From a phage: 64,000 bases of DNA. This document shows positions 3,910-64,000 of this stretch, one piece after another (within the stretch, counting starts at the first letter, position 1; each line of letters opens with the position of its first letter). The DNA lies in the sequence record PZ171032.1; one strand, written 5' to 3'. The notes beneath the pieces are model-generated. The model did no database searches. It had not been told where the DNA came from and saw only the letters and a list, made by a program, of their open reading frames with translations. Made by a program: the position numbers and the translations under genes.

Positions 3910-3999
3910 TCCTGCTTGTATTAGCATACTTCCTCGATAAGGAAGGTTTGTAATTATTTGTGGGAAAGGAATCCCATCTCTTACCAGAGGTGATACTAT

Positions 4000-4263
4000 A
4001 TGATTGTTTATTTTAAAACTTCAGGTGGATACCCTGATTCTCAAAGCTTGATCGGAAAAACGTGCACAGCATACTCACCTCTTGATGAGGAGGTAAGCGA
4101 TATTCTACGAAATATGTATCGGATTGATCCCCAAGAAGCTTTTGATCAAAACCTTGTATTTGTCAAAGGCTCAGACATGAAGTCTTTGGGAGCATTCCCT
4201 GAAGCAGATGATGATGCCGTTTATTCGTTCATGACCCCTTTTGAAGCTATGGTTGTTGGGTGA
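4000..4263 (+). CDS. hypothetical protein
   Basis: GAGGTG RBS. Confidence 0.6.
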   Translation: MIVYFKTSGGYPDSQSLIGKTCTAYSPLDEEVSDILRNMYRIDPQEAFDQNLVFVKGSDMKSLGAFPEADDDAVYSFMTPFEAMVVG

Positions 4264-4267
4264 TAAT

Positions 4268-4600
4268 ATGAAAGTACGCTTTATTGGTGAAACAATTCCT
4301 GTGCATCTCCGGTCGCCTGAAGATTCTGCGGATCTTGCATCTCAGAAGGCGAGAGGTTATGATAAGAAAGTAATCTCAACCGATGTAGAACTTGAGGCTA
4401 CTAGTCTACCTGACCCTGCTGCATTCTTTAATCATTATGGATACTATTTCAGCAATCTGATGAATATCGGTGAGCTTGTGTTTATTAGTGGTGGAGAAAT
4501 TGTTAGCAAGCTTGGCGGAGATCCGGATGTCTTTCATGAAACCTGTCCTTTTGCATTTGTGGTGGGTTCGGATGTGGAAGTTATTGAGGAGGTGCAGTAA
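4268..4600 (+). CDS. hypothetical protein, paralogue family A
   Basis: track ORF starts at TTG 4241 overlapping upstream gene; ATG at 4268 follows upstream stop; C-terminus FAFVVGSDVEVIEEVQ. Confidence 0.6.
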   Translation: MKVRFIGETIPVHLRSPEDSADLASQKARGYDKKVISTDVELEATSLPDPAAFFNHYGYYFSNLMNIGELVFISGGEIVSKLGGDPDVFHETCPFAFVVGSDVEVIEEVQ

Positions 4601-4995
4601 TGGTAAGCCTATACCGTGTTGAGTATAGCTCAGATACTGTATACAACGTAAGAAGCAAAGATCGCAGCGACAGAGTGCAAGAAATGTATGTTCTTGCCGA
4701 CAGTCCGTTATCTGCAGCGTTCAAGGCAGGGGCTCTTGCATCTCGTTGGAAATTTGAAGGCGGATCTTTCTATGAAGAAACCCTTGAAGATTCTGTTGTT
4801 ATTTCTTCTGTAGAGGTTTCAGATGACTACGAAGGGAAAAAGTTCGTAATGCGGCACCCACACAGCAACATTGCGTACTACTGGGATGTTCTGAACAACG
4901 AGTGGACCCCAGATCTTCAGAAGGCCACTGTGCTAACACCGTTTTTGGCAGATAAGTTCCCACCAGAAGGTAATTTATCCGCACTGTTTCAGTAA
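4600..4995 (+). CDS. hypothetical protein, paralogue family B
   Basis: paralogue of 2391-2789; start overlaps upstream stop. Confidence 0.6.
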   Translation: MVSLYRVEYSSDTVYNVRSKDRSDRVQEMYVLADSPLSAAFKAGALASRWKFEGGSFYEETLEDSVVISSVEVSDDYEGKKFVMRHPHSNIAYYWDVLNNEWTPDLQKATVLTPFLADKFPPEGNLSALFQ

Positions 4996-5683: not shown

Positions 5684-6012
5684 TGAAGATTGACCCGTTA
5701 CTGAAGGCTCGTGCAGAAAAAGCGTACACCATTAAGCTGACCAACCTGGTTCCTACTTGTCATCCAGATGTAGGTTGGCCTGAAGGTCTGGTAGAGGGGA
5801 CTGTAACAGCTGCATACCTTCCTAACATCAAATACCTTATGGAAATCTTAGAGATGGATGAGGAAACTGCAGAACAGTTCCAGTTGGATATGAAACAGAG
5901 TGGGACTCTGGTTATTCACGGGTGGTATAATACTAAAGATGCAGAAGACCCTCTGGTAACTTCTAATCTGGCATATGAAATCTTAGGGCCTTTGAACCTG
6001 GAGGAAGACTAA
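5683..6012 (+). CDS. hypothetical protein
   Basis: ATGA overlap with upstream gene. Confidence 0.6.
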   Translation: MKIDPLLKARAEKAYTIKLTNLVPTCHPDVGWPEGLVEGTVTAAYLPNIKYLMEILEMDEETAEQFQLDMKQSGTLVIHGWYNTKDAEDPLVTSNLAYEILGPLNLEED

Positions 6013-6299
6013 TGAAAGATCTGGTTAAGATTAAGATTAAAGATACCAATGGGGAGCTCAGCCATTTTGGAATTAATGATGGTGACGAGCTGATCGCACA
6101 CCTGCCTACCAAGGAGGTTGTAAGCAAAGCAGTTGCCGGAGAAGAAGCTGCAATGCAGGCTGCAGGTGTGGATGAAAACTATGTAGCTATGTGCATGTGC
6201 CGAGATCAGGTTGTTCTGTATAAAGCGTATCGACCAAACGGAGCCACGGAGTGGCTTGTATTCCGACCCGAAGGATATGAAATCTTAGAGGCACTATGA
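6012..6299 (+). CDS. hypothetical protein
   Basis: ATGA overlap. Confidence 0.6.
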   Translation: MKDLVKIKIKDTNGELSHFGINDGDELIAHLPTKEVVSKAVAGEEAAMQAAGVDENYVAMCMCRDQVVLYKAYRPNGATEWLVFRPEGYEILEAL

Positions 6300-6379
6300 T
6301 AAATCTTGCCAAGGTTGCAACGGCACTGTTAATTATTTGCTGGTCAGTAACCTTAACACTGTGTCTTGTATTTCAGTGA
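6296..6379 (+). CDS. tiny hydrophobic peptide (27 aa)
   Basis: ATGA overlap with upstream stop; predicted single TM segment LLIICWSVTLTLCLV. Confidence 0.25.
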   Translation: MINLAKVATALLIICWSVTLTLCLVFQ

Positions 6380-6388
6380 GGTGCTTGT

Positions 6389-6652
6389 ATGAACATCCTG
6401 ATGTGGGTTATAGCAGTGGCGTTTGTTGCATGTTTTTGCTGCTGGGTTGTGGTGAGGATTTCTGTAGCTACCCTTCGGAAGTTGGGGTTCTCAGAATGGG
6501 ATATTAATATCCTTTCTTTTCGCAATGAAACAATCTCAGCCGCCCTGCTTTGTAAGAAATTTAAGTGGGAACCTTGTGAGGTCATGAGCTATCTAAGAAC
6601 AGGCGATATCCCTGAAAGATTTAAAAAAGTTCTTGACGGCAAGGATAAATGA
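6389..6652 (+). CDS. hypothetical membrane protein
   Basis: GTGAGGTG RBS; N-terminal TM helix WVIAVAFVACFCCWVVV. Confidence 0.6.
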   Translation: MNILMWVIAVAFVACFCCWVVVRISVATLRKLGFSEWDINILSFRNETISAALLCKKFKWEPCEVMSYLRTGDIPERFKKVLDGKDK

Positions 6653-6680
6653 CAGTATAGTGACTAACAAGAGGTGAGGG

Positions 6681-6821
6681 GTGACTGATTTTACTGAAGC
6701 TTTAATGATGGCCTTGTCTGTTTTAGCGCTATCGGTGTGTTTTGGGGCGTTATTCACATCTCTGGTTAAAGTTTTACATACAGTATTATTACCCAAGGGG
6801 CGCAGTAATGACGAAGATTGA
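6681..6821 (+). CDS. small hydrophobic protein (about 46 aa; GTG start, may start at internal ATG)
   Basis: GAGGTGAGGG RBS then GTG; TM-like LMMALSVLALSVCFGALF; overlaps next gene start. Confidence 0.3.
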   Translation: MTDFTEALMMALSVLALSVCFGALFTSLVKVLHTVLLPKGRSNDED

Positions 6822-7059
6822 CTTGAATGCTGGCGATCATGTTGTTGTCAAATGCATTGGAGATTATCTTGGATTCACAATCGGCAATACTTACGAGGCG
6901 ATAGTGGCGAAGGTTTATCATGATAAAGTCCTCAGTCTTGTATTTGACTGCGATGATGATGGGGATGACCGATACGTCTGTGAGGTGCTGGCACGAGACG
7001 ATAGTGAAGACCAGAAATTTCTGGTTATTGAACTGAACGGTATTTTTGTAGAACGTTAA
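6808..7059 (+). CDS. hypothetical acidic protein
   Basis: track ORF starts at 6742 (non-ATG); first ATG at 6808 (MTKIDLNAG). Confidence 0.6.
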   Translation: MTKIDLNAGDHVVVKCIGDYLGFTIGNTYEAIVAKVYHDKVLSLVFDCDDDGDDRYVCEVLARDDSEDQKFLVIELNGIFVER

Positions 7060-7087
7060 TTTAAAACAACATAAGGAGACTCTTACT

Positions 7088-51391: not shown

Positions 51392-54300
51392 TTAACGAGA
51401 AAAGGTTGCGTAGGCTTCTAGACGATACTGCTGGTCACCAGGGAACATAACACCTATAGAGGCTGTCCCTAGAATCCTGCCTTCCTTTCCAGACTCCATT
51501 CTGAACCCTACCCATCCTGAACTCCTTGCAGCCTCGATGTTGTCGCTATACCCGAAAGTGGCAAGATCGTCAACACCAGCCCCAAACAGCAACTGAAGCT
51601 GACTTCTCGGAAGCCCTATAATTTCAGGAATATACGCACCAAAGTACACCATCTGCCCTACCTTAGGACCGCTGCCGTACTCCATCGGTTTGCTTGTAGA
51701 GAAAGTCTTCATACCAGAAGTACCTGCCGGATTAGGGTATGCCCCGTTTGTTGCTGTACCTATCCACATTCTCCACTGTGGTGCCATCTGTTTGACAGTA
51801 AAAGATGTTGAAGACGTTTTGCGCCCTGCATCATCTGTAACTACAAACTTTATGGTGACATTCCCAGTAGCTTTAAATGTTACCAGTCCTGTGGTGGCAT
51901 CCACTGTTGCAATGTTGGTATTACTACTTTCCCAAGTCTTTCTAATCCCGGATACGTTGGAAGGGGTAATAGAAGGTTCCTGCATCTGCAGTTTACCGCC
52001 CACAATCCCTATGCCGTTGCCAGGATTATACAGTGCACCAACCTCGTCTATAATGTTCCCTGCTTTGAGACTATACTTCCTTGAGAAATTGTAGGTTCCG
52101 TTATAAGTGTGTGTCCCTGAGAAGGTGACATCTGCCTTCCCGTAAGAGATGCAAACCAACGCATACTTCCTGTCAGGCAACGTTTCTCCAGTCTCTGGGT
52201 GAGTTTTACCTACCTGGAACACACTCGGGTCAGTAGAGTCGTGACTATCACTAACGGAGCTTGGACCGCCCATCAACTGTGACAAACAATTCCTTACCCA
52301 TGTCCAGTTATTATCGCTGGAGAAGTCCACAGTCAAATCAAACACAACCCACTCATTTGGCTTCCACACAGGTGTTGTAATGGACTTGCCTACACCACCT
52401 CCTTGGAGTGTTGCCGACTGTTCAGTGATCAGGGCCGCATAGGCCAGAGTTCCTAAACTCAGAGTCTGGCTTGCTGTCCTCACTACCTTAGAATCAGCAT
52501 CTGTGAAGTTGTTGATGATTTGGAATGTGCCATAAGTGTTTTTACAGGTAATTCTGGCGTTCAGTGTGTCAATCTTCCTCACATCTGCCATAGCAGTGTT
52601 AGACACAGAGAAGTCAGAAGCTTTAGCTGAGTTTGCCGCAACAGCAGGATCAACGTTAAGAGTTGCGTTGAACTGACAAGCAGGAGTAACCAGTAGCTTG
52701 TTATCACCTATTTGCTTCCATGAAACACTTTGAACAGGGAGATTCCATTTAATACCTGAGAAAACCTTAGCAACCCTTGGCCCCAAAGCTCCAGTCCTGT
52801 TGTCTTTACAGCACATAGACATGGTGATCGTTGACGGAGTGGCCTGACCAAATAATTGCTGTGCTTTTGCAGAGGACATAGTGTAGAAATTGTCCTTAAC
52901 AAACTCATCAGCAGCTAAAGATCCATCAGCTCTCCACCACTGAACCTGATACCCTGTTTTGTCCCAACCACCGACCTGCTTCAAGTCCTCCCAGGAGATT
53001 TCCAGATCCCCGGTGGTAGGATTGATTGCAGCAGTTCCTGGTGTTCCAGATGACCATATTGGAATATCGAACCACGCTGGTTTAACCGACTGCACTGCGC
53101 TGGGACCTATTGCGGCAGCAAGTTGCTGGCCCATCAATACGCGAGCATCTTTCACCAGACCCCACTCAATCATAGACCCAGAGTAACCTTCTTTCTTGTA
53201 GGCTGAGGATCCGTTCAAATGGATGAGTCGGCTTGTGCCAAAGTTATGTGCTCCACCACCGTTGTCGTCTGCAAAATTGGTTATGATTCTGTCCCTGATA
53301 TTTTTCCATGCCCTGCCTCCAATCTCGTAGTCATGGTCATAACATCTTTGCAGTGTTGTCCAGCAAATGATCGCCATCCTTCTACCATTGCTGAAGCCAA
53401 AGGCCTGATCGTTAAGCTCTCTCCACAAGTAGCAGTTGGTGGTCCACATGGCCCTATGAATGTTAAACCAGTTTATAGATTTGGCTGAGTTGTTCCACTG
53501 AGTCCCAGGTAATTCAGGCCATACTGCATTAACCAGCATGTCTTCTGTTCCTGCATCAACCAGGAACCCTCTCACCTTCTTACCCATGCCTACCCTATCT
53601 TTTGCAATCCAACTGCCAAACAATCTCAGTTTTGGACCGTAGACAACATCTTCCGGATGCTCAAAAGAAATATATTTTAGGTATATTGTAGGGTCACCAT
53701 AGGTGCCATCACAAACAGCTTTGTGCATGTTCTCACCAAGGTCTAGACGAAGTCCTGTTACAACTCTAGACGTGTCGGTGAATTTGTCTGTTAAATCAAA
53801 CTCATACCACCACCAACCTGCACCCAACAATACTTTCTTACAACGCTGTGCATCTGTATCAGATATTCTCTTATCGCCTGCAAAAGGTGAGTCAGCAAAC
53901 TGATAGTGCAGAGCAACCTCAAAAGGATGTGTGGATGTCCCGTTTTCTGCAAGAACTTGTTTACCTATCAGGTCGCACTTAATGATCATCACAACACGTT
54001 TGTATCCGTTTGTTACCGGAATTTGCATGGACATGGATGTCCCATCCATGTTTGATCTCAGTGCAGTCATGATGATATAAGGGTCAACGGCATTGCCCAA
54101 AGTCTCAGGACCGGGGATTATCTTATACTTCTTGACCTGCCCCATGATGTAGTCACTTGCGTAAGTTGCCTCATTCAAGCAAGATCCTCCACCAGGTAAC
54201 TCACCAGGTCCCCAGAAAAATGCGCCGTAACAGTTGTAGAACCACTTGTTAGGATCGTATTTATTCTTGAAGGTCTGAACCTCGTTGGCCTGTTTTGTCA

Positions 54301-57028
54301 AGAAAACCTGCGTGTCTGTGAAGATTGCAGGGTTTACTCTCGCCTGTCTTGGAGGGTAACCTGTAGTTTGGTTAAACCACAAATTACAAGAGTAATCCCT
54401 CATATAGTCATAATCAGAGTATTTGTTTACATCTTCGTTCCAACACATGTTTAGGTTGGTACCGCCCATGCATACAATATATTCTGCGACATACTTATCA
54501 CTTCTGGTAGGAATACCTATGAACCATCTGTTAACAGGCTCATCCCAAGCTGTGCGCTCATCTTTAACGCAGATAGCAATCCAGTCATGTGTTCCTGTTT
54601 TCTTGCACACATCTCGCTTCATACCATAGTAGAACTCTTTAGTATTCGGCTCAGGTGCATTTATCAGGTAACTCCATGCCTGATTTGCATAAGTTCCATT
54701 GGTGCGTGGATCATGATCAAAGGCATACATGATGATCCTTTCCCCACCAAGATGTTCGCCAAGAGTAACTTTGACATTCACATCGCCGTAACCATTGCGA
54801 ACAACATCCATATTGTCAATAGAGATGCCTCTGGGAGTGTAGGCAATCTTCAGCGAGTTATCCTCACTAGTGCCACCAAGTGTAATCCCTATGTTGTTTG
54901 TTGTCCCGTCGGCATATCTTACTGTGGCTTCCCAGCGTATTCCGAAATATCCTGCATCATGGCTAACAATTTTCAGTGTACGAGCACCAGAGTTAGGTTT
55001 TCCAGGATCAGGCCAAGGATTTGGATGTTCATGGACAGTCAACGATGTCCCGTTTTGCTCGTTGACCTGCAACATTTTACCGCCTCTGCCGTTAGGGTTG
55101 AACTCCCACAAGGCTTGTGTTTTCACAATATTGTCATACGTGGTACGTCTCTGATCGTAGATCTCCTGAGTCACATCGTAGGTTACAGACCCGGCATCCA
55201 TTCTATGGAGTCGTACTATATACGATGTATCGCCTTCTACAGCAGGTTGAGCTGCGTTAAGCCCGAAGTATACAGTATCGTTGACATGGAACTGTTTGTT
55301 TCTACCGACAGTATGCCACTTGCCGTTGGACGGGTACGCTGGGACGATAGTGTTCCAGTTCAAAGTCCTTGTTGTGTGGGTTCTGCCTGTGCCATGTTTG
55401 TCATGATAGGTTATTTTTACAGAGTACAGTCCACGTCTGTTAACATTTCTGTTATATTGGGTAACAACAACTTCGTTGGCCCCGCCGTGGTTCCAGTTGG
55501 TGGAGAATTGGTAATTTGCATCTGTAACAACCGTGCCTGCAGCATTTACCAGTTCAATCTTGTCAATAATGAACGTAGCCCCCTCTGGCTGAGGCTTCAA
55601 TTTCATCTTGACCGTGTCACCAATGTAAATATTGCTAACGCTGCTAACACCGTTAACTTCGAAAATATAATCAACACCCCAACTGTCTACTGGGACATTT
55701 TTATACCAATTCTCAGGAACCTCTGTGAACCCCTGGCTATTAAGTCTGCCGCCAAACAGGTTGTTAGATCCTGCAAAACTTCCCCTTGGGATGCCTGACC
55801 ACCAAAGTTTACCATTAACAACAGTAAAGGTTCCTAAGAAACCTTCTCTGTGGATGCCTTGGAAATAAACACTCTCTGTCCAGCTAACTGGCAGGCGTTG
55901 CTCAACATATTTAGCTGTAGCAAGAGCTTGATAGTGGATAAAATTAGCCCTAGGGCTATTGTTTGCAGATTGTGCACCAATATCATTACACAAGTTGCGA
56001 GAGAATCCACGATACTGTTTAGTGCCATTATTGAAGAAAATGCCACTTGTGCCATATCCACGAGCCATTATCACCTCATGGGTGTAGGTGATATTTAAGG
56101 AACGCCATGTGTCATCTCCCCAGACGTCTTGCCCGTAGAATACGTTAACAAGCTGCTGGTCATTGGGTTTGTGCATCCTCTGTGTGGCAATTATTGCCCC
56201 GTTAGGGCCACACATAAACCCTTTCCACTCCTCATCTGCAGGAATGCCCCTCAAATCGTTACGAGTAATCTGCACAGGGGGCCAAACAAGGTCGTTTCTA
56301 CTGTTATTTCTCAGAAAGTCGTATCCAGCAATCCAGAAACCCCTAGGACCACCGAAAATAACAGAGTTGTCATGCACCTCACAGTTGATGCTTGGGTTTT
56401 TCCAAGGGCCTGTTTCAGGATTTTCCGATGTCTCACCAATCTTTACAGGGGTTGCATGCTGATTTTTATCTACATGCAAAGATCCGTAGGTGTTGTTACC
56501 AGATCCATACAGGTTAAGTATGCCAGTACCTTCTGCCTCTGCAATAACCCAGACAGTGTTGTTAATACCGCCCATCACCTCAATAAGGCGTTCTGGGTGG
56601 GTGTCAAGGTGCAATCCTTTAACAATCTGCTCTGGGAGTGGTGTCCACTCGTTTACGCAAACATCATTACCGCCTGCCGCAGTGGATCCGATAAGACCTG
56701 CAGTGCAGCCGATGTAGAAAAACTGGTTATCAAAAGTCCGGATCACAAACGCGCGGTCTGCTCTCCACACATGATCAACATTCCAGGCTGTTTCGCTCGG
56801 ATAGTTTATAGGGCTACGATCCCCAGTGCGGCACTCTCCGAACTTGTTATAGCCAGTAATATTAAGCTGACCATCATCAAAAAGTATAGCTAAGCTATTT
56901 ACATAGGATACTGTGTTGCTTGTACCATCACTGTTGTCTATTGGGTATGACAGAACAGCAAGTTCCTTAATTCCACCCCTCTTATCGAGGAAATGACGAC
57001 CAAGTTTTAGCAAAGGGATTGGAAGCAT
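51392..57028 (-). CDS. giant tail fibre / host-recognition protein (1878 aa) with Big_2 Ig-like domain
   Basis: size and position in tail-fibre module; Big_2-like segment WESSNTNIATVDATTGLVTFKATGNVTIKFVVTDDAGRKTSSTSFTV; GGAG RBS. Confidence 0.7.
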   Translation of the reverse strand: MLPIPLLKLGRHFLDKRGGIKELAVLSYPIDNSDGTSNTVSYVNSLAILFDDGQLNITGYNKFGECRTGDRSPINYPSETAWNVDHVWRADRAFVIRTFDNQFFYIGCTAGLIGSTAAGGNDVCVNEWTPLPEQIVKGLHLDTHPERLIEVMGGINNTVWVIAEAEGTGILNLYGSGNNTYGSLHVDKNQHATPVKIGETSENPETGPWKNPSINCEVHDNSVIFGGPRGFWIAGYDFLRNNSRNDLVWPPVQITRNDLRGIPADEEWKGFMCGPNGAIIATQRMHKPNDQQLVNVFYGQDVWGDDTWRSLNITYTHEVIMARGYGTSGIFFNNGTKQYRGFSRNLCNDIGAQSANNSPRANFIHYQALATAKYVEQRLPVSWTESVYFQGIHREGFLGTFTVVNGKLWWSGIPRGSFAGSNNLFGGRLNSQGFTEVPENWYKNVPVDSWGVDYIFEVNGVSSVSNIYIGDTVKMKLKPQPEGATFIIDKIELVNAAGTVVTDANYQFSTNWNHGGANEVVVTQYNRNVNRRGLYSVKITYHDKHGTGRTHTTRTLNWNTIVPAYPSNGKWHTVGRNKQFHVNDTVYFGLNAAQPAVEGDTSYIVRLHRMDAGSVTYDVTQEIYDQRRTTYDNIVKTQALWEFNPNGRGGKMLQVNEQNGTSLTVHEHPNPWPDPGKPNSGARTLKIVSHDAGYFGIRWEATVRYADGTTNNIGITLGGTSEDNSLKIAYTPRGISIDNMDVVRNGYGDVNVKVTLGEHLGGERIIMYAFDHDPRTNGTYANQAWSYLINAPEPNTKEFYYGMKRDVCKKTGTHDWIAICVKDERTAWDEPVNRWFIGIPTRSDKYVAEYIVCMGGTNLNMCWNEDVNKYSDYDYMRDYSCNLWFNQTTGYPPRQARVNPAIFTDTQVFLTKQANEVQTFKNKYDPNKWFYNCYGAFFWGPGELPGGGSCLNEATYASDYIMGQVKKYKIIPGPETLGNAVDPYIIMTALRSNMDGTSMSMQIPVTNGYKRVVMIIKCDLIGKQVLAENGTSTHPFEVALHYQFADSPFAGDKRISDTDAQRCKKVLLGAGWWWYEFDLTDKFTDTSRVVTGLRLDLGENMHKAVCDGTYGDPTIYLKYISFEHPEDVVYGPKLRLFGSWIAKDRVGMGKKVRGFLVDAGTEDMLVNAVWPELPGTQWNNSAKSINWFNIHRAMWTTNCYLWRELNDQAFGFSNGRRMAIICWTTLQRCYDHDYEIGGRAWKNIRDRIITNFADDNGGGAHNFGTSRLIHLNGSSAYKKEGYSGSMIEWGLVKDARVLMGQQLAAAIGPSAVQSVKPAWFDIPIWSSGTPGTAAINPTTGDLEISWEDLKQVGGWDKTGYQVQWWRADGSLAADEFVKDNFYTMSSAKAQQLFGQATPSTITMSMCCKDNRTGALGPRVAKVFSGIKWNLPVQSVSWKQIGDNKLLVTPACQFNATLNVDPAVAANSAKASDFSVSNTAMADVRKIDTLNARITCKNTYGTFQIINNFTDADSKVVRTASQTLSLGTLAYAALITEQSATLQGGGVGKSITTPVWKPNEWVVFDLTVDFSSDNNWTWVRNCLSQLMGGPSSVSDSHDSTDPSVFQVGKTHPETGETLPDRKYALVCISYGKADVTFSGTHTYNGTYNFSRKYSLKAGNIIDEVGALYNPGNGIGIVGGKLQMQEPSITPSNVSGIRKTWESSNTNIATVDATTGLVTFKATGNVTIKFVVTDDAGRKTSSTSFTVKQMAPQWRMWIGTATNGAYPNPAGTSGMKTFSTSKPMEYGSGPKVGQMVYFGAYIPEIIGLPRSQLQLLFGAGVDDLATFGYSDNIEAARSSGWVGFRMESGKEGRILGTASIGVMFPGDQQYRLEAYATFSR

Positions 57029-57040
57029 TGTGTTCTCCAG

Positions 57041-57070
57041 ATAAGAAAACCGCCCCGTCAGGAGCGGTTA
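57041..57070 (-). terminator. terminator-like hairpin (minus strand)
   Basis: minus strand CCGCTCC-TGAC-GGGGCGG followed by TTTTCTT. Confidence 0.45.
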
Positions 57071-57076
57071 GATATA

Positions 57077-58822
57077 TTAACGTTGTGCAATTACTACGTC
57101 TACAATATCACCAACACCACAATATGTTAATTGCAGCAGGGTAACACTGTTAGCCTTGTTGTTAATAACAGGTGTTGCCGACAGGATAGCATACTTATCG
57201 TGCAAAGTCACGTTGTGACCTACAGCATCCTGAATGACATAGATAACTGCAGTGAATGGATAAGGTTTATCTTCCGCTGATGTCCCAGGCCACTGCCCTA
57301 TTGTAAAATCCCCTTTAGCGTGGACAACATACATACTGGCCTGCCCGTTAGGTGTCCATGTCCCACTAGATGCGTCAACCTCCTCTAAGTCAAAGTCTAC
57401 TTTTCCTGCATGGAAAGAAGGGGCGGTGATAGTTTTACCTGCCTCGATCTCTTGTGAGGTGGTTATCTTGCCACTAGAGTTGATACCATTACAGACAAAG
57501 TTAACATTAGAGAAATCTGGCAACCACCCTGTCACTGTGCCAGAAATCTCAAGGTTATGCAGGCGTGTTGTTCCTGTGCCGTTGTCATTTAAGCTAACAT
57601 CACCATTTACCTGCAAGTTTCTGGTAACGTTGCAGTTTTCAGAGTTTGCAGTTGTTGCAGTTAAAGTGGTTGTTGTCAGCTCGGTAATTATGCCTTTGTT
57701 GGCTGTAAGACCTTCCCCTTCAAAAGTTGCACGCTCATTGACTCTCAGGGTATTCAGAGCTATGTTTTGGATAGAGGCTGTACCTCGAATAACTACAGAC
57801 CCGCCAACCTCTAAATCGCCATTTACCAATGCATCGCCCGTGCTTTCAATGTAGCTAGGGTAGATCATGGTGCCATCGACAGAGTAGGTTATCCCTGTAA
57901 CGGTGCCTGTCACCTCAAGGTTCTTAACCCTAGCGGTCCCATCGACCTGCAATGTCGGTTCGGTTGCTGCCTTCATGGCATTGCCACGAATGTACACGTA
58001 GTCAAAAAAGTTATTACCCAGACCATCAAAATGCACATCGTTATTATTAGCCACTGGTTTCCCAGAAGTTATAGTGTCAGCTATAATCCTGTGGGTGGAC
58101 ACTTCATGAGGTTGCAGCTCTGTGCTTCTCCAGTCTGCATGCTTAGGATCGCTCCACGCAAAAGTAAGTGTAGAAGTATTTGCCGTGAGGATCAGGTTCC
58201 TGAAGCGTGCATTGGAATCTGCTCCATTAACAGGCCCATGTAAGGTAAGTGTGCCCCCAACTATGGTGTTGGCAAGTTCTGTAAGACCTTTTACCACCAA
58301 AGACCCTACAGTAACTTTCATCCCCTCCATGGCTTTAAATATACTATCTACATAGTCAACAACAAACTCTGTGTTTGCTATAGACTCAGACTTATCGTCC
58401 ATTGGAGGAGTAGGTACTCGCGGGTCACCTTCGAACCTTGGGCTGTTAAGTTTTGCGTAGTATTTTGCCATTACTGCAGAGTCGGTGTATAATCTCCAGT
58501 TTGGAGATTGTGAAGGATCTGCTGGCATTCTAACCGGGTTAGATTTTGATGCTGCGGGAGCGTACCACCACTGAGGGCCTGTGTCCCCTTTAAACTCATA
58601 CAACTGGTTAAAAACTGTTGTGGATGCACCATACGCCCAAGGGATTGGTGGCGTTTTAAAATAAAGGGTGTCAAGCATGGCTTTTCGTACCGTAGGGATA
58701 GTGGTCCCATCCTCTACGACAACTTCATCCACAGCGTTACCGTTGACAATCAAGTGCAAACGTTCAGAATCAACAATTACTTGATCTACCGCCTGCTCGA
58801 AGCTTGTCATGTCTTGCGCCAT
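57077..58822 (-). CDS. tail fibre / tailspike protein (581 aa, repetitive beta-rich central region)
   Basis: repeated G-T-x-T-G / N-L-E-(I/V)-(S/T)-G-T-V-T-G segments typical of beta-helical or fibrous tail proteins; location. Confidence 0.6.
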   Translation of the reverse strand: MAQDMTSFEQAVDQVIVDSERLHLIVNGNAVDEVVVEDGTTIPTVRKAMLDTLYFKTPPIPWAYGASTTVFNQLYEFKGDTGPQWWYAPAASKSNPVRMPADPSQSPNWRLYTDSAVMAKYYAKLNSPRFEGDPRVPTPPMDDKSESIANTEFVVDYVDSIFKAMEGMKVTVGSLVVKGLTELANTIVGGTLTLHGPVNGADSNARFRNLILTANTSTLTFAWSDPKHADWRSTELQPHEVSTHRIIADTITSGKPVANNNDVHFDGLGNNFFDYVYIRGNAMKAATEPTLQVDGTARVKNLEVTGTVTGITYSVDGTMIYPSYIESTGDALVNGDLEVGGSVVIRGTASIQNIALNTLRVNERATFEGEGLTANKGIITELTTTTLTATTANSENCNVTRNLQVNGDVSLNDNGTGTTRLHNLEISGTVTGWLPDFSNVNFVCNGINSSGKITTSQEIEAGKTITAPSFHAGKVDFDLEEVDASSGTWTPNGQASMYVVHAKGDFTIGQWPGTSAEDKPYPFTAVIYVIQDAVGHNVTLHDKYAILSATPVINNKANSVTLLQLTYCGVGDIVDVVIAQR

Positions 58823-58831
58823 GATTTCTCC

Positions 58832-59098
58832 TTAAGCTTTTTGCTCTTCGTTTTTAACGTGGTCAGGGTGCTGGCAACCCCACCGGAGCGAGATGAATTT
58901 GCTAATAAGCTGGGGGCAGGCTACTGAAGGTGCATATATCCACGCATACCATTCAGGAAGCGTATCATTATACCCCATATGAATAAACACCCCAGTCATC
59001 ACCGCCATGCCTATGTTCGACCATAGCTTAGATTGGGATACTTTCGTAGGGTCATCAGATGCCGCAACCAGTCCCCATAAAAACTGAGTTAGTTTCAT
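58832..59098 (-). CDS. small membrane protein (two predicted TM segments; holin-like or fibre-associated)
   Basis: hydrophobic stretches FLWGLVAA / IGMAVMTGVFIHMG and charged C-terminus. Confidence 0.5.
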   Translation of the reverse strand: MKLTQFLWGLVAASDDPTKVSQSKLWSNIGMAVMTGVFIHMGYNDTLPEWYAWIYAPSVACPQLISKFISLRWGCQHPDHVKNEEQKA

Positions 59099-59109
59099 TT
59101 ACCCTCTTT

Positions 59110-60156
59110 TTAAGCATAAGATATAGTGATCCATTGACCGTTTACAAGTTTTTGGATAGCACCTGTCCAGTAATCACCTTGATAAGGGTGTTTATAAGCG
59201 TAGTTACCAGAGCACATCACATGTCCAGGGTAGACTCTTGACTCTCTGTAGGTGGTTTTGAAACGGTTCGCTATCCTTACATCGTCAACCCCTCTACTGG
59301 GCATAGGGACAGTAAGGTTACCACTACCGTCTGCGCTGTTACCGTTTACCCTGCGGACCACGTTTCTTCCACCAACGGTTGCATATTGGCCTCTAACGGT
59401 TTCATCGTTACAATCAACTCTTCCACCTATTTGAGCGCTTCCGCAGGATTGTTGTCCGTTAACAGTGGCTCTTGGTATCGTGACCGCATTGGCATTTGCA
59501 GAGGAACTTTTTGCATCGTTGCATTCAAGATTTCCTTGGATAGCCAGTCTTGCACGGTTGGCAGTTATAGCATTGAGCTTCATAGCCGAAAACACAGTCT
59601 GCCCACCAGAAGGTTGAAATCTCCAACGGAACCCGTCTATTTGGTGAGAAGGATCATCAAGGTCTGTGCCGTCAGCACCACCGATGTTGTCCATAATCCA
59701 GAAGTCCATCGTCGTCTTGTCTGGAGTTATGGTGGTATATATTGCCGCATTGTCTGTTGACGCAGATGCAAACTCGATTCTTTGAAGGCCTAAAGTTTGA
59801 GTCTGAGTCATTATGTCTCCAGACTTGTCAACATACAGATCGTCCATTTCTTCAGGCGAGTATACATTGAGAACTTGACGTGCAGCAGCTTTGTCTGGAA
59901 CGTCTGCTAGATTATTAGTGACCCTTAAGAATCTATTATCCCATCCTGGGACAACATCTTCTGTTAAATGCTTTAACCACGCAGAAAGCATGTGAAGTTC
60001 AAAGTTAACAACTTCACATGCCACTCTTTGTGTCATATCCCAACCTTTCAATCTCTCTTCTTTTTTTGGTTGAGACTTATTCAACTCTCCCGTATTTTCA
60101 AGCACAACATCCTGATTGGCCCAAATATCAAGAGGGATAACTGGTTTAGTCATCAC
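59110..60156 (-). CDS. tail fibre protein, paralogue 1 (348 aa)
   Basis: collinear similarity with 61168-62208 (shared N-terminus P(L)(D/E)IWA, shared C-terminus QKLVNGQWIT(I/V)(S/N)YA). Confidence 0.65.
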   Translation of the reverse strand: MMTKPVIPLDIWANQDVVLENTGELNKSQPKKEERLKGWDMTQRVACEVVNFELHMLSAWLKHLTEDVVPGWDNRFLRVTNNLADVPDKAAARQVLNVYSPEEMDDLYVDKSGDIMTQTQTLGLQRIEFASASTDNAAIYTTITPDKTTMDFWIMDNIGGADGTDLDDPSHQIDGFRWRFQPSGGQTVFSAMKLNAITANRARLAIQGNLECNDAKSSSANANAVTIPRATVNGQQSCGSAQIGGRVDCNDETVRGQYATVGGRNVVRRVNGNSADGSGNLTVPMPSRGVDDVRIANRFKTTYRESRVYPGHVMCSGNYAYKHPYQGDYWTGAIQKLVNGQWITISYA

Positions 60157-60242
60157 GTTCTCCTGAGAAAATTCCTTAGGACTATTTTAACACTTTAGGG
60201 AACAAAATGCAAGAACGGAGTCCTTTCCGTTCTGACCTTTGT

Positions 60243-60557
60243 TTACCTTTTACTATGCTCTACGAGCATGTGCAAAATCTTTTGTACATCGGCTCTGATG
60301 CCGGAGACATCTGTCCTGACATCCTGCTTAAGGTCGTTAATATCGGCCTCTAGCTTGCTTAACCGGGTCTCTATAACGGAATCAAGTTTATCTTTTGTAA
60401 CCATACTGTTTTTCACTAAGATGAGGTCTTTCTCCAGCTCATCCAACCTCTTGGAAATGCCTTTCCATTTGGTGTGCCACTGGTTGAAAGCCCATACACA
60501 GATCGGGACAACGGTACCCATGCAGATACCGTACAATGCCGCCAAATCCAACTCCAC
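60243..60557 (-). CDS. membrane-anchored protein with charged helical ectodomain
   Basis: single N-terminal TM (LYGICMGTVVPICVWAF) followed by charged heptad-like sequence. Confidence 0.5.
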   Translation of the reverse strand: MELDLAALYGICMGTVVPICVWAFNQWHTKWKGISKRLDELEKDLILVKNSMVTKDKLDSVIETRLSKLEADINDLKQDVRTDVSGIRADVQKILHMLVEHSKR

Positions 60558-60568
60558 AACACCTCCTC

Positions 60569-61153
60569 TTAGAGGGTAGGTCGCTCCGGGAAGAAAATGT
60601 CAGGGGCTTTAGATGTATCTATTTCAAGAAGTTTTACCCTGTACATTTTCAAATCTCTGATGTTACGTTTCTGGTCATCAGTAAGATCATATTCAAGGTC
60701 AATCATGTCTTGATAGGCACCAATTCTAGCAGTAGCCCAAGCAAGTTCTGTCTCTATGACACCCTCTGCCTGTTGAACAAAGAATTCATTATCTGTGACA
60801 AATTCATCACCAACTAAACGCAAAGCGTCGTGGTGAAGCATAATGTTTTCTGGTACCTCTTCTTTTTTGGCGATAACCACACGAAGACCTGGAGCAGGCC
60901 ATAAGGCATCAGGTTCTTCTGTAGATGTCTTAAGAATTCCCTTCTCGTCAACAAGTAGGAAGATACAACCCGGATTTTCTTGTCGCAATGTTCGTGACTG
61001 CACATACCAATCGCCATCATCATTACGTAAAAAATACCCAGTGTATGCGGTGTAATCCTCAACCTCTTGAGGGGTCAGCTCCTTGGTTTCCTTGTTGGCG
61101 TGGTATTCGCCAGATCCCGGTTGGTAAAGTTTAAACTCTTTAAGTATTTTCAT
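60569..61153 (-). CDS. tail fibre assembly chaperone (Tfa-like)
   Basis: C-terminal signature ...LKMYRVKLLEIDTSKAPDIFFPERP matches the conserved Tfa motif (W/K-x-YR-x-x-L-x-x-VDTS-x-APDI-x-WP); immediately downstream of a tail fibre gene. Confidence 0.75.
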   Translation of the reverse strand: MKILKEFKLYQPGSGEYHANKETKELTPQEVEDYTAYTGYFLRNDDGDWYVQSRTLRQENPGCIFLLVDEKGILKTSTEEPDALWPAPGLRVVIAKKEEVPENIMLHHDALRLVGDEFVTDNEFFVQQAEGVIETELAWATARIGAYQDMIDLEYDLTDDQKRNIRDLKMYRVKLLEIDTSKAPDIFFPERPTL

Positions 61154-61167
61154 GCTAGTCCTCCGAT

Positions 61168-62208
61168 CTATGCATAATTAACAGTGATCCATTGACCATT
61201 TACAAGTTTTTGTAAAGGTCCTGCCCAGTAAGTTGAACCACGCATCTCTTTTTTGTCACCGAAATGCCAGCCTGTGACAACGTAGCCGTTGCGGATTGGA
61301 GATTCAGAAACGCCGTCCACAAGTCTTGCACCGATTCTGATGTCTTGCACACCCGTCTGCGGGATAGTGATCGTTACATCACCGTTACCGTTAGCCGTCA
61401 CTCCGTTCACAGAGCGAACCACATTTCTGTTACCTACAACACAGTGCTGGCTTCTTACAACCATACTGTCACAACTTGCACCACCATTAACATATACTGA
61501 CCCAGCCGTCAACTGACTAGCCACATTACAGTTGGTGAATGTTGCGGTATTGCTGATAGTAAGGTTATTGCACCTCATGTTATCGACAACTTCAACATTG
61601 CCTACCACTTTCAACAGCGCACGGTTAGCCGTGATCGCGTTAAGGTACATCAAAGTGAACTCTGGATTAATATCCGGCTGAGTTGGCTGGAATCTCCAAC
61701 GAAACGCATCTATTGTAGATGTGCCACCATCATCAAACGACCCAAAATTATCACTTAACCCAAAGTCGAGAGTTGTCTTATCTGGGCCAATAGTTGTCTC
61801 TATCCAAGCCTTATCTGTCTCGGCAGCTTTAAAGTTGATACGTTGCAAACCCAATGGGCCTGTCATTGTATCACCTGTAACTTTTACATACCTAGCGTCT
61901 GCCTCTTCCTTAGTAATAATCCCAAGGTTTCTACGGGCAACAGGAATGTTCAAAAGATCACTCAAGTTATTATCACGTACCAGATAACGGCCTTCTTGAG
62001 CGGGGATCTGCTCGTCAGCAATGTATTTTGCCCAAGTCCCGAGCATATTGAAAATATAGTTAAGCTCTTCGCATGAGGGCTTTTGACCAAGATCCCAACC
62101 TTTTCTCCACAAATCATCAATCGGGCGTAGCCTGTTCTGTCTGTGGGTGTTAGGCAGAACCTGATCCTCCTCTGCCCAAATCTCTAATGGAAAACTAGGT
62201 TTTGACAT
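61168..62208 (-). CDS. tail fibre protein, paralogue 2 (346 aa)
   Basis: paralogue of 59110-60156; followed by Tfa-like chaperone. Confidence 0.65.
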   Translation of the reverse strand: MSKPSFPLEIWAEEDQVLPNTHRQNRLRPIDDLWRKGWDLGQKPSCEELNYIFNMLGTWAKYIADEQIPAQEGRYLVRDNNLSDLLNIPVARRNLGIITKEEADARYVKVTGDTMTGPLGLQRINFKAAETDKAWIETTIGPDKTTLDFGLSDNFGSFDDGGTSTIDAFRWRFQPTQPDINPEFTLMYLNAITANRALLKVVGNVEVVDNMRCNNLTISNTATFTNCNVASQLTAGSVYVNGGASCDSMVVRSQHCVVGNRNVVRSVNGVTANGNGDVTITIPQTGVQDIRIGARLVDGVSESPIRNGYVVTGWHFGDKKEMRGSTYWAGPLQKLVNGQWITVNYA

Positions 62209-62220
62209 TTTATCTCCTGA

Positions 62221-63972
62221 TTATGAGAAGTCTGGCGGGACAACATCTTCTACATACCCTTTCAGAGCAACCTGCCCCATATGAAGCACGGTAGAATCTC
62301 TAGCGGTAACAGTGATGCTGTCAGACATTACTTGCGGGTATGCCCACACATACTGTTTTACCTCAGGGTATCTATACTCTATAGTTGCCATGTTTCCGCA
62401 AATACATCTCCATAAAAATTCTTGGTAATTCCTAGTTGGGTCGTAGCCATATACCGGAGCAAGCTCTTTACTAGGAACGAACCCTGCAAGGTATTGTATT
62501 TCAGACGGTTGCCAACCTAACTTAACGATAGGTATGTTTACAGACTCTTTTGCCTTTTCAATACCTCCCTGCATCACCCAATCGTAGCACTCAGTGCAGA
62601 AGAAATCAAGAGCACCTGCTTCCTTTTTATATTGGTCAGCAAGGTTCAGCTTTTGCGTAAGCTCGGTTTCCATAATGGTTGGGAAAAACAGCAAAGCTGT
62701 CATCTGAGCTGATGCAGCGTGTGCTTTTATTGCCTTTGAAATAGCCGCAATACGAGCGCCAAGCTTACCACGACAAAATGCTACATACTTGTCGTAAACA
62801 CCGCCAGTTTTAGGATCGTCAATAGTCCCAATATCTAATGCATACTCGCCTGTCTCATCATAAAACGCCTGTTTTGTAGGGTAATCATAAATACAAGGTC
62901 TACGAGTATCGGTATTGTACCACCACCACGGTTCACCAACCTGCATAATCACTGGCAGGTTGTTTCTCATAGCGGCTGATGCAAAATTCTTAAATACTGC
63001 AGTAAGGAAATTCATACCCTCTTCAATGGTTGGAGACAGGAGGTAGCTACAAGGTGTATACCCTGTTTTAGCGTAGTTATCGTTCCAGTCTCTTTGGGTC
63101 CATTCCAACGGGCAGGCGTCGCTGAAAAGCTCAAAACTTACAGATTGCATAACGTCGAAGTTATGTCGTTTGGCATTGTACATAAAATCATCATGCCATT
63201 TATAAGCTGCAGCGTTTAGCGCTCCTGTTCTGTTTATAGACCATTGGGTTCCTGACCATGTGTAGTCATAATAATGACTCATACCAACATAATGGTTTAT
63301 GGTTCCGGTATAGCCCAGACGCTTGATATTGTTCAACACCCTTAAAGGAGACACGTTCCACATATCGTCATATGCGGTGCAGATCCCAACATCGTGCTCT
63401 TTAACCTGAATATTGTTAAGTTGCATCATTTTCCAGCCTGTGTCTGGCTGGAGCAGATCTAGGCGCAACTCACACTCTACATTTTCCGTTCTCGGGTCTG
63501 TGCTATTACTTACCCAGTCTTTAGGCATGAGCGGTATTAAAATCCTTCTCACCTGCCGAGGATCAACACCCATCATGTTGTTGTTCTGGTCCATCCCGAC
63601 GCAGTCCTCAAAATCAATATGAATTTCTGCAACATTCTTATCCTCTGAGATGCTGACAGCATATTGAGCTAAAGGAACATAGATGATTGTGCCATCAACA
63701 AGGTCTACAGTCATAATCATCTTTTCAGGAGTGGAGAAGTTGCTGGCGTTGGTTATTGACATTCTGAACCAAAGCTTGGTGTTTCTCATCTCATAGTGAT
63801 CATCAAACCCAATACCGAAATGGTCATACTTGTCAACTGTTTCCCAAATGCACCCAGCCATACCCCCATATGTTCTTGACACTAAACGGTTAATACAACA
63901 GTTGTTATCTGCAACAATACAGGTACTTTCAGTCTGCTGAGTAGTTGTAACCCAATACCTTGGGTGAAACAT
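62221..63972 (-). CDS. hypothetical structural protein (583 aa; possible tail/baseplate component)
   Basis: large ORF at upstream end of tail-fibre module with GAGGAG RBS; no catalytic motif recognised. Confidence 0.5.
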   Translation of the reverse strand: MFHPRYWVTTTQQTESTCIVADNNCCINRLVSRTYGGMAGCIWETVDKYDHFGIGFDDHYEMRNTKLWFRMSITNASNFSTPEKMIMTVDLVDGTIIYVPLAQYAVSISEDKNVAEIHIDFEDCVGMDQNNNMMGVDPRQVRRILIPLMPKDWVSNSTDPRTENVECELRLDLLQPDTGWKMMQLNNIQVKEHDVGICTAYDDMWNVSPLRVLNNIKRLGYTGTINHYVGMSHYYDYTWSGTQWSINRTGALNAAAYKWHDDFMYNAKRHNFDVMQSVSFELFSDACPLEWTQRDWNDNYAKTGYTPCSYLLSPTIEEGMNFLTAVFKNFASAAMRNNLPVIMQVGEPWWWYNTDTRRPCIYDYPTKQAFYDETGEYALDIGTIDDPKTGGVYDKYVAFCRGKLGARIAAISKAIKAHAASAQMTALLFFPTIMETELTQKLNLADQYKKEAGALDFFCTECYDWVMQGGIEKAKESVNIPIVKLGWQPSEIQYLAGFVPSKELAPVYGYDPTRNYQEFLWRCICGNMATIEYRYPEVKQYVWAYPQVMSDSITVTARDSTVLHMGQVALKGYVEDVVPPDFS

Positions 63973-64000
63973 TCTCTCCTCAACAGTATCCCAAGATATC

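Follow-up and report, generated by a model that had tools for sequence, protein, structure and literature searches.

The phage sequence record PZ171032.1, of which we analyzed a stretch of 64,000 nucleotides (the window), carries at positions 58832 to 62208 two paralogous genes for tail-fiber-like proteins of about 347 amino acids, a single recognizable Tfa chaperone gene, and two genes for small membrane proteins. The question raised by this locus is whether both large proteins are receptor-binding fibers, how they would be served by one chaperone, and what the small membrane proteins are doing inside a structural module. At the DNA level, the window region from 57000 to 64000 is approximately 97 to 98% identical to more than 100 Vequintavirus (rV5-like) myophages of Escherichia coli, and at least 80% of this 7-kilobase region is present in 111 of 118 matching records. 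In the order of transcription, which is on the minus strand, the window genes are homologs of rV5 gp34, gp33, gp32, gp31, gp30, gp29, gp28, and gp27. The locus is probably the short-tail-fiber module of Vequintavirus, consisting of two paralogous baseplate fibers (short tail fibers A and B, here called STF-A and STF-B), a shared chaperone, separate late transcription units, and two small membrane proteins. All five open reading frames of an earlier reading of the same letters (here called the original prediction) are present on the minus strand, at the coordinates it gave except for the start of STF-B. The features of the locus are as follows.

61168 to 62208, minus strand: STF-A, short tail fiber of 346 amino acids, homolog of rV5 gp33 (PHROG 4465, 2e-171).
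60569 to 61153, minus strand: Tfa chaperone of 194 amino acids, homolog of rV5 gp32 (Pfam PF02413; PHROG 136).
60243 to 60557, minus strand: protein of 104 amino acids, homolog of rV5 gp31 (hydropathy and charges; PHROG 5345, of unknown function, 1e-48).
60212 to 60233, minus strand: terminator-like hairpin after the 104-residue gene (scan; 8-pair stem, T-rich tail).
60169 to 60205, minus strand: putative late promoter of STF-B (match to rV5 P030, 1 base different).
59110 to 60153, minus strand: STF-B, second short-tail-fiber paralog of 347 amino acids, homolog of rV5 gp30 (PHROG 4465, 3e-165).
58832 to 59098, minus strand: hydrophobic protein of 88 amino acids, homolog of rV5 gp29 and phi92 gp144 (PHROG 1322, “membrane protein,” 2.7e-32).

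STF-A and STF-B align collinearly from end to end with 43% identity and 59% positives (E = 9e-95), far above chance, confirming that they are full-length paralogs. The STF-B gene had been placed at 59110 to 60156; the gene itself stands, but deposited annotations start it at the ATG at 60153, giving 347 residues, and not at the in-frame GTG at 60156. Along STF-A, identity between the paralogs is 40% over residues 1 to 70, 44% over 71 to 125, 58% over 126 to 200, 28% over 201 to 262, 53% over 263 to 292, 27% over 293 to 330, and 75% over the last 16 residues. The description of the pair as sharing both termini around a diverged center is thus no more than approximate: the terminal strand and residues 126 to 200 are the best-kept parts, and the N terminus, at 40%, is no better conserved than the average. 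The parts that have diverged are a shaft segment (201 to 262) and a tip subdomain (293 to 330), the latter lying just ahead of the conserved terminal strand QKLVNGQWIT..YA. Similarity between the two genes at the DNA level is confined to 63 nucleotides at the 3′ end, which are 83% identical, and recent gene conversion between the paralogs can therefore be ruled out. A different pattern was observed in an uncultured Vequintavirus-like contig (SRR24653873, here called L008), in which the paralogs at 3913 to 4953 and 6001 to 7065 have different shafts. Their tips (approximately residues 293 to 330) are 95% identical to each other and of the STF-A type, as opposed to 27% identity in the rV5-type phages, which suggests an exchange of tips or concerted evolution between the paralogs. 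Since the last 184 nucleotides of the two L008 genes are only 79% identical, this event would not be recent.

Homology to fibers of known structure or assignment supports the view that STF-A and STF-B are baseplate-attached receptor-binding fibers. In phmmer searches of PDB sequences with each protein, complemented by a search with a family profile, residues 1 to 108 of STF-A matched the N terminus of the short tail fiber of phiTE, a phage of the Vequintavirinae (9CUY; E = 1.4e-19), as did residues 1 to 83 of STF-B (E = 2e-8) and the family profile (E = 2.9e-25). In the cryo-electron microscopy (cryo-EM) structure of phiTE, residues 3 to 92 of this fiber form, as modeled, a trimeric joint attached to wedge protein 1. 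At the other end, residues 286 to 343 of STF-A align to residues 440 to 501 in the tip of the Mu tail fiber S (5YVQ; E = 8e-7, or 8.2e-8 with the family profile), and the neck motif of the two proteins is also present in another solved short fiber, 9zd7. In line with these matches, the phi92 ortholog, gp147, was assigned by cryo-EM (2026) to fiber III, six copies of which sit on wedge protein gp145, and has been proposed to mediate irreversible binding. Taken together, the wedge-docking N termini, the Mu S-like C terminus, and the assignment of phi92 gp147 argue, in agreement with the original prediction, that the two proteins are fibers and not core components of the baseplate. Genomic context is consistent with this assignment: in Bas59, in L008, and in a divergent relative, L009, the order is wedge gene, baseplate protein gene, (gp34), STF-A, and Tfa, and STF-B belongs to the same baseplate-wedge/fiber module, where it lacks a Tfa gene of its own. 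Each fiber would comprise an N-terminal domain of approximately 90 to 110 residues docking on the baseplate wedge, a neck carrying the motif NLxD...AR.NLG, a shaft rich in beta structure, and a tip of the Mu S type, and both are presumably trimeric.

The product of 60569 to 61153 had been called a Tfa-like chaperone, and this was borne out by a Pfam Caudo_TAP (PF02413) match over residues 121 to 192 that scores 45.8 bits against a cutoff of 22.1 (E = 8.5e-12) and by a match to PHROG 136 (tail fiber assembly) at 7e-37. The protein thus consists of a variable N-terminal domain and a conserved Caudo_TAP C-terminal domain (121 to 192). In chaperones of the Mu type, the variable N-terminal domain binds the fiber and the conserved C-terminal domain trimerizes (summarized in PMC9608196). 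The Tfa gene lies directly downstream of STF-A, whereas STF-B is followed by the gene for the 88-residue protein, which shows no similarity to Tfa in Pfam or PHROG. In every genome examined, however, both paralogs keep the same extreme C terminus, which changes together with Tfa. In the window and in L009 the two fibers have the endings ...NYA and ...SYA, and the Tfa proteins of these two genomes share 77% identity; in L008, which is a more distant lineage, both fibers end in ...QTL, and Tfa is only 47% identical to that of the window. Because the paralogs share an extreme C-terminal strand that covaries with Tfa, it seems that one chaperone serves both, in which case the single Tfa (gp32) would fold STF-A as well as STF-B.

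The 104-residue gene, which has a GTG start codon and a good Shine-Dalgarno sequence, is separated from STF-B by a spacer of 86 nucleotides. Within this spacer lie the terminator-like hairpin (60233 to 60212; extended fold −17.5 kcal/mol, z = −3.3) and, at 60205 to 60169, a sequence that differs by 1 base from the MEME-derived putative late promoter P030 of rV5 (Table S4C). STF-B also has its own Shine-Dalgarno sequence. A late promoter of its own for STF-B suggests that STF-A, Tfa, and gp31 on the one hand and STF-B, gp29, and gp28 on the other form separate late transcription units. Transcription of the former would start at the baseplate promoter P036, and that of the latter would run from P030 to the terminator t028 at 57069 to 57048. 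Comparison with Bas59 shows purifying selection on each of the five genes, with ratios of nonsynonymous to synonymous change (pN/pS) of at most 0.09, based on small counts (0.08 for STF-B). STF-B nevertheless evolves faster than STF-A, being 78% identical to its L009 counterpart versus 87% for STF-A, and 49% versus 72% in the comparison with L008. This faster divergence fits a more host-variable specificity of STF-B.

Comparison with relatives that carry one short fiber suggests how the second copy may have arisen. In a Seunavirus-like Salmonella phage, the Certrevirus PcCB7V, and an Aeromonas Plateaulakevirus, the gene order is wedge, baseplate protein, STF, Tfa, a homolog of the 104-residue protein, a polytopic membrane protein of approximately 150 residues, a homolog of the 88-residue protein, and lateral fiber. 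In phi92-like/Phapecoctavirus phages, STF and Tfa are followed by a 113-residue transmembrane (TM)/coiled-coil protein, and the homolog of the 88-residue protein (phi92 gp144) is located upstream of the wedge genes. The STF of the Seunavirus-like phage is 50% identical to STF-A as opposed to 39% to STF-B, and STF-A, by this identity and its position, is the syntenic ortholog of the single short fiber in related genera. STF-B stands in the slot where the single-fiber relatives carry the polytopic membrane protein gene, which encodes 146 to 157 residues (L002:5312-5785, L005:5336-5794, and L006:4496-4936; PHROG 7451) and is assigned to no family in Pfam or NCBIfam. Vequintavirus lacks the polytopic gene, both at its slot and throughout the whole window. 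The polytopic protein was also considered as a relative of STF-B and was ruled out (BLASTP E = 1.0). In Aeromonas phage 2L372X the corresponding open reading frame is unannotated and has no significant similarity to the enterobacterial one. Two STF copies per record were found only in Vequintavirus among the 235 matching phage records, as well as in uncultured relatives. The locus is accordingly not the duplicated cassette that had been proposed: the single-fiber relatives already carry the genes for both small proteins, which are therefore ancestral neighbors and not partners of each fiber copy, and only the fiber gene is extra. A duplication of the fiber gene alone, within the Vequintavirus lineage, would have produced the extra copy, which would have landed between two ancestral small membrane protein genes in place of the polytopic gene and gained its own late promoter.

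We infer that both paralogs are incorporated into virions, and the two fibers would differ in receptor specificity, their targets most likely being distinct variants or epitopes of the lipopolysaccharide (LPS) core, the terminal receptor of V5-like phages. Several observations weigh against this picture of two fibers with separate specificities and a common chaperone. STF-B on its own gave no PDB match to Mu S at an E value of ≤1, and its tip (293 to 330) is only 27% identical to that of STF-A, so that its use of the same Tfa is not assured; in Mu, each of the alternative tips (S/U and S′/U′) brings its own chaperone. An AlphaFold2 model of the STF-B monomer, built from a 10-sequence alignment, was unusable (mean predicted local distance difference test score [pLDDT] of 31.8), intertwined trimeric fibers calling for multimer prediction, so that the argument about fold is one of sequence homology to fibers with a solved structure or an assignment. 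The deposited mass spectrometry table for rV5 lists 19 loci, among them gp27, gp34, gp37, and gp41 but none of gp29 to gp33 (PMC3606486, Additional file 5); the main text of the same paper, unlike the table, names gp30, gp32, and gp33 among the detected proteins. A paper on O177 phages presented as proteomics contains no mass spectrometry, and CRISPRi-ART on the rV5-like phage EdH4 covered knockdowns of capsid and rII only. Finally, the terminal receptor of the V5-like phage LL12 is Glc I of the outer LPS core, and deletion of waaG reduces its efficiency of plating to approximately 1e-6. Since loss of Glc I abolishes plating of LL12 on K-12, the two fibers would not be independent receptor-binding devices on that host.

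An alternative is that the paralogs do not form independent sets of fibers and instead coassemble, as heterotrimers or through competition for the six wedge sites, or that STF-B docks elsewhere, for example, on another fiber. We regard this as rather unlikely, though far from negligible. Both paralogs have a homologous N-terminal anchor, and each wedge in the structures of phi92 and phiTE offers a single short-fiber site, which makes six per baseplate; docking at another site would be compatible with anchors that are only 40% identical, and the phiTE long fiber does contact the short fiber. The sequences, however, give no sign of a second docking site, regular heterotrimers seem unlikely given 43% overall identity and insertions and deletions in the shaft, and no Vequintavirus baseplate structure was found in the literature searched. 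If this alternative were true, the duplication would alter the architecture of the baseplate rather than simply add a receptor specificity. It is extremely improbable that STF-B is merely redundant, or a duplicate in decay, without a function of its own. Such a duplicate might be expected to lack a chaperone and to diverge faster than its sister, as STF-B does, but STF-B is intact in every sampled Vequintavirus record and in divergent metagenomic lineages, its pN/pS is only 0.08, it has its own Shine-Dalgarno sequence and putative late promoter, and its anchor and C-terminal strand are conserved. Two fibers mounted on the baseplate, each with its own specificity, remains the reading that we prefer.

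The small proteins appear to belong to the membrane. The 104-residue protein was expected to be a TM/helical protein, and it indeed has one clear N-terminal hydrophobic helix (approximately residues 3 to 24) followed by a charged, coiled-coil-like region. The helix is flanked by acidic residues on its N-terminal side (E2 and D4) and by basic residues on its C-terminal side (K30, K32, K36, and R37), which predicts an N-out/C-in orientation with a cytoplasmic coiled-coil domain, opposite to that of an i-spanin, and no gene for a lipoprotein (o-spanin) adjoins it. Homologs follow Tfa in the Seunavirus-like, Certrevirus, and Aeromonas relatives. The 88-residue protein had been described as having two TM segments, of which one, although marginal, stands (residues 25 to 43; mean Kyte-Doolittle hydropathy of 1.05), while the second is uncertain, being weaker and proline kinked; the rV5 gene table lists no TM domain for gp29 (PMC3606486). 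An AlphaFold2 model of low confidence (pLDDT of 58) has helices at residues 3 to 11, 22 to 41, 44 to 55, and 62 to 73, and a Foldseek search of this model against BFVD gave no match with an E value of <2. Homologs of the 88-residue protein occur in 374 phage records in Vequintavirinae, phi92-like/Phapecoctavirus phages, and Aeromonas Plateaulakevirus, and the motifs PEW and LRWG are invariant in the family, whose charged C-terminal tail varies. Metagenomic homologs have a nearly invariant core of 74 residues, and many carry a C-terminal extension of approximately 30 to 40 residues rich in Tyr, Ser, and Asp and ending in RR. The source label “DUF2644” on one of the metagenomic homologs was not reproduced by HMMER, and the name was in no paper that we found. 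Pfam and NCBIfam returned only coiled-coil noise for the 104-residue protein and nothing for the 88-residue protein. Homolog searches of large databases, those for the fibers included, yielded few matches, all unnamed. No chain in the virion models of phiTE is matched by either small protein, and the structural proteins assigned in the phi92 cryo-EM study do not include phi92 gp144. Overall, gp31 (104 residues) and gp29 (88 residues) are probably conserved, nonvirion inner membrane proteins.

What these proteins do was weighed between two explanations. According to the first, which was raised in the original prediction and is not supported by our analysis, one or both are lysis proteins, for instance, the V5-like holin, expressed late from the fiber operons. 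The holin of LL12 “could not be positively identified,” the genes of both small proteins lie within late units, and the 88-residue protein is small, helical, and universally conserved in the group, with a hydrophobic core resembling a hairpin and a charged tail that varies. There is also precedent for such a location in T4, where gene t is placed after the tail fiber genes, and the positional analog of the 104-residue protein in phi92-like phages weakly matches an Rz-like spanin PHROG (E = 5e-4). On the other side, the endolysin (rV5 gp89 and LL12 gp90) and the i- and o-spanins (LL12 gp66 and gp65) are encoded elsewhere, and the 88-residue gene is always found in the fiber/baseplate module, unlinked to them. 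The weak, proline-kinked second segment and the lack of a listed TM domain in rV5 gp29 speak against the 88-residue protein as a holin, the predicted cytoplasmic coiled coil of the 104-residue protein is the reverse of what an i-spanin requires, and neither protein has a holin or spanin match in Pfam or NCBIfam above noise. A far more holin-like candidate is rV5 gp129, which has two strongly hydrophobic TM domains and a Lys/Arg-rich tail; gp129 is restricted to Vequintavirus (116 records), which does not discriminate between the candidates. Furthermore, the rV5 endolysin has no N-terminal signal-arrest-release or signal segment and is soluble, so that a pinholin would not suffice. We consider a role in lysis improbable. 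A tentative and more plausible explanation, though still less likely than not, is that the small proteins are accessory to the fibers or baseplate, either assisting assembly from a membrane anchor or excluding superinfecting phages or protecting progeny at the envelope structures to which the fibers bind. Their position beside the STF-Tfa or wedge genes has been kept across three phage groups despite rearrangements, their genes are under purifying selection, and their absence from the phiTE chains and from the phi92 assignments suggests that they are not virion components. Against this stand the lack of homology to any characterized exclusion or assembly protein, the dispensability of the polytopic member of the set in Vequintavirus, and the fact that genes for exclusion tend to be early or moron-like and not located within late operons.

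A separate open reading frame of rV5, ORF 90 (L012:710-916), lies directly downstream of the endolysin gene and encodes 68 residues with a signal- or lipoprotein-like start (MKDFLLAILFMAACLACG). The rV5 paper (PMC3606486) does not take it up in its section on lysis. On a more speculative note, the 104-residue, 88-residue, and polytopic proteins might form a deeply conserved, probably nonvirion inner membrane set within the baseplate/short-fiber operon of Vequintavirinae, phi92-like/Phapecoctavirus phages, and Plateaulakevirus, with an undescribed function tied to the fibers, be it the missing holin or lysis timing or a membrane platform or progeny protection for LPS-binding fibers; separately, short fibers sharing the six wedge sites might produce mosaic virions. 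We think these ideas quite unlikely to hold as they stand.

The short-fiber genes are flanked by genes for other fibers, which are listed here with the terminator that lies among them.

62221 to 64000, minus strand: 3′ part of the rV5 gp34 homolog (Pfam NCTSP_N and TIM-barrel_NCTSP, E = 2.6e-80; Bas59 and rV5 annotation).
57077 to 58822, minus strand: lateral or long tail fiber of 581 amino acids, homolog of rV5 gp28 (match to phiTE 9cuy_g; PHROG 4549).
57048 to 57069, minus strand: Rho-independent terminator after the 581-residue gene (scan; 9 pairs, 6 GC; rV5 t028, Table S4D).
51392 to 57028, minus strand: lateral fiber protein of 1,878 amino acids, homolog of rV5 gp27 (Pfam Big_2, 4e-8; Bas59 annotation).

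The gp34 homolog, directly upstream of STF-A, has 690 residues in relatives and is a lateral fiber or tail-sheath-like protein with a TIM barrel of the N4 gp65 type; the 583-residue open reading frame at 62221 to 63972 is the truncated 3′ part of this gene, the frame staying open to the end of the window. The NGR glycan serves the group as primary receptor, with the gp34-type protein as its proposed binder. Residues 8 to 325 of the 581-residue protein match the phiTE “putative tail fiber protein” (9cuy_g, the long tail fiber; E = 1.8e-77), and from this homology the protein is probably attached directly to the baseplate. The 1,878-residue gene is the final gene of the fiber cluster, and its rV5 homolog is listed as locus 27 in the rV5 virion mass spectrometry table. 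The expectation that the phage carries several receptor-binding proteins agrees with the known “Swiss army knife” of rV5- and phi92-like phages. Among the database records, approximately 16 to 21 GenBank entries carry the title “Campylobacter phage” (host, C. jejuni); they share about 97% identity with the window from 57000 to 64000 and are probably mislabeled or contaminants. Likewise, Salmonella phage vB_Sen_SG_WM_RUS_R7 (PQ002170.1) is filed under Demerecviridae but has a PVP-SE1/rV5-like baseplate/fiber module, suggesting that its taxonomy line is wrong.

Short tail fibers perform the irreversible, LPS-core-binding step of infection by rV5-like phages, which are common in sewage and have been used in biocontrol of E. 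coli O157 and in therapy cocktails. The mounting of two paralogs on one baseplate, and the wider range of LPS cores that it may bring, is thus relevant to the engineering of host range. The gene pair itself represents no new biology; the origin of the second copy, its promoter, the faster pace at which it evolves, and the ancestral membrane set are modest additions and leads for experiments.

Among known systems, T4 gp12 is a functional analog, being a baseplate fiber that binds the LPS core irreversibly. Its chaperone is gp57A, and the T4 system thus uses another chaperone than the Caudo_TAP protein of the window. A link of rV5 gp30 and gp33 to T4 gp12 was made by HHpred in 2013 (PMC3606486); it was not reproduced in our PDB sequence searches, in which STF-A, STF-B, and the family profile found no gp12 chain at an E value of ≤1. 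Mu S and U (5YVQ) resemble the window more closely, in that the tip and neck of S are homologous to those of the window fibers and the chaperone is in the same Pfam family. In Mu, an invertible segment provides the alternative tips, and each tip comes with a chaperone of its own; the window, by contrast, has two complete fiber genes with one chaperone and an N-terminal anchor unrelated to that of Mu. Closer still are phi92 gp147 with its Tfa, gp148, and the phiTE short tail fiber (9CUY/9MJN chain c), which share a homologous wedge-docking domain with STF-A and STF-B. As in the window, a Tfa and a small TM/coiled-coil protein lie downstream, and phi92 gp144, the homolog of the 88-residue protein, belongs to the same module. 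Unlike the window, phi92 and phiTE have one short fiber and not two, the fiber of the flagellotropic phiTE has 554 residues and includes a coiled coil as well as Ig-like domains, and the phi92-like homolog of the 88-residue protein lies upstream of the wedge genes. The rV5 and BASEL loci have the same genes, order, and sizes as the window, with approximately 97 to 98% DNA identity, and nothing substantive differs. gp30 and gp33 were reported to be 42.3% identical in the rV5 paper (Kropinski et al. 2013, PMC3606486), and the “short tail fiber” locus of the BASEL Vequintavirus phages was described together with its link to the single short fiber of phi92-like phages and to Mu GpS/GpU, as part of a multifiber “Swiss army knife” (Maffei et al. 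2021, PMC8594841, S5D Fig). The paralogy, the single chaperone, the relationship to Mu S/U, and the idea of multiple receptor-binding proteins are therefore already published; what our comparison adds to the published texts is the position of STF-B in the slot of the polytopic gene, its own putative late promoter, the unequal rates of the two paralogs, and the covariation of their C termini with Tfa.

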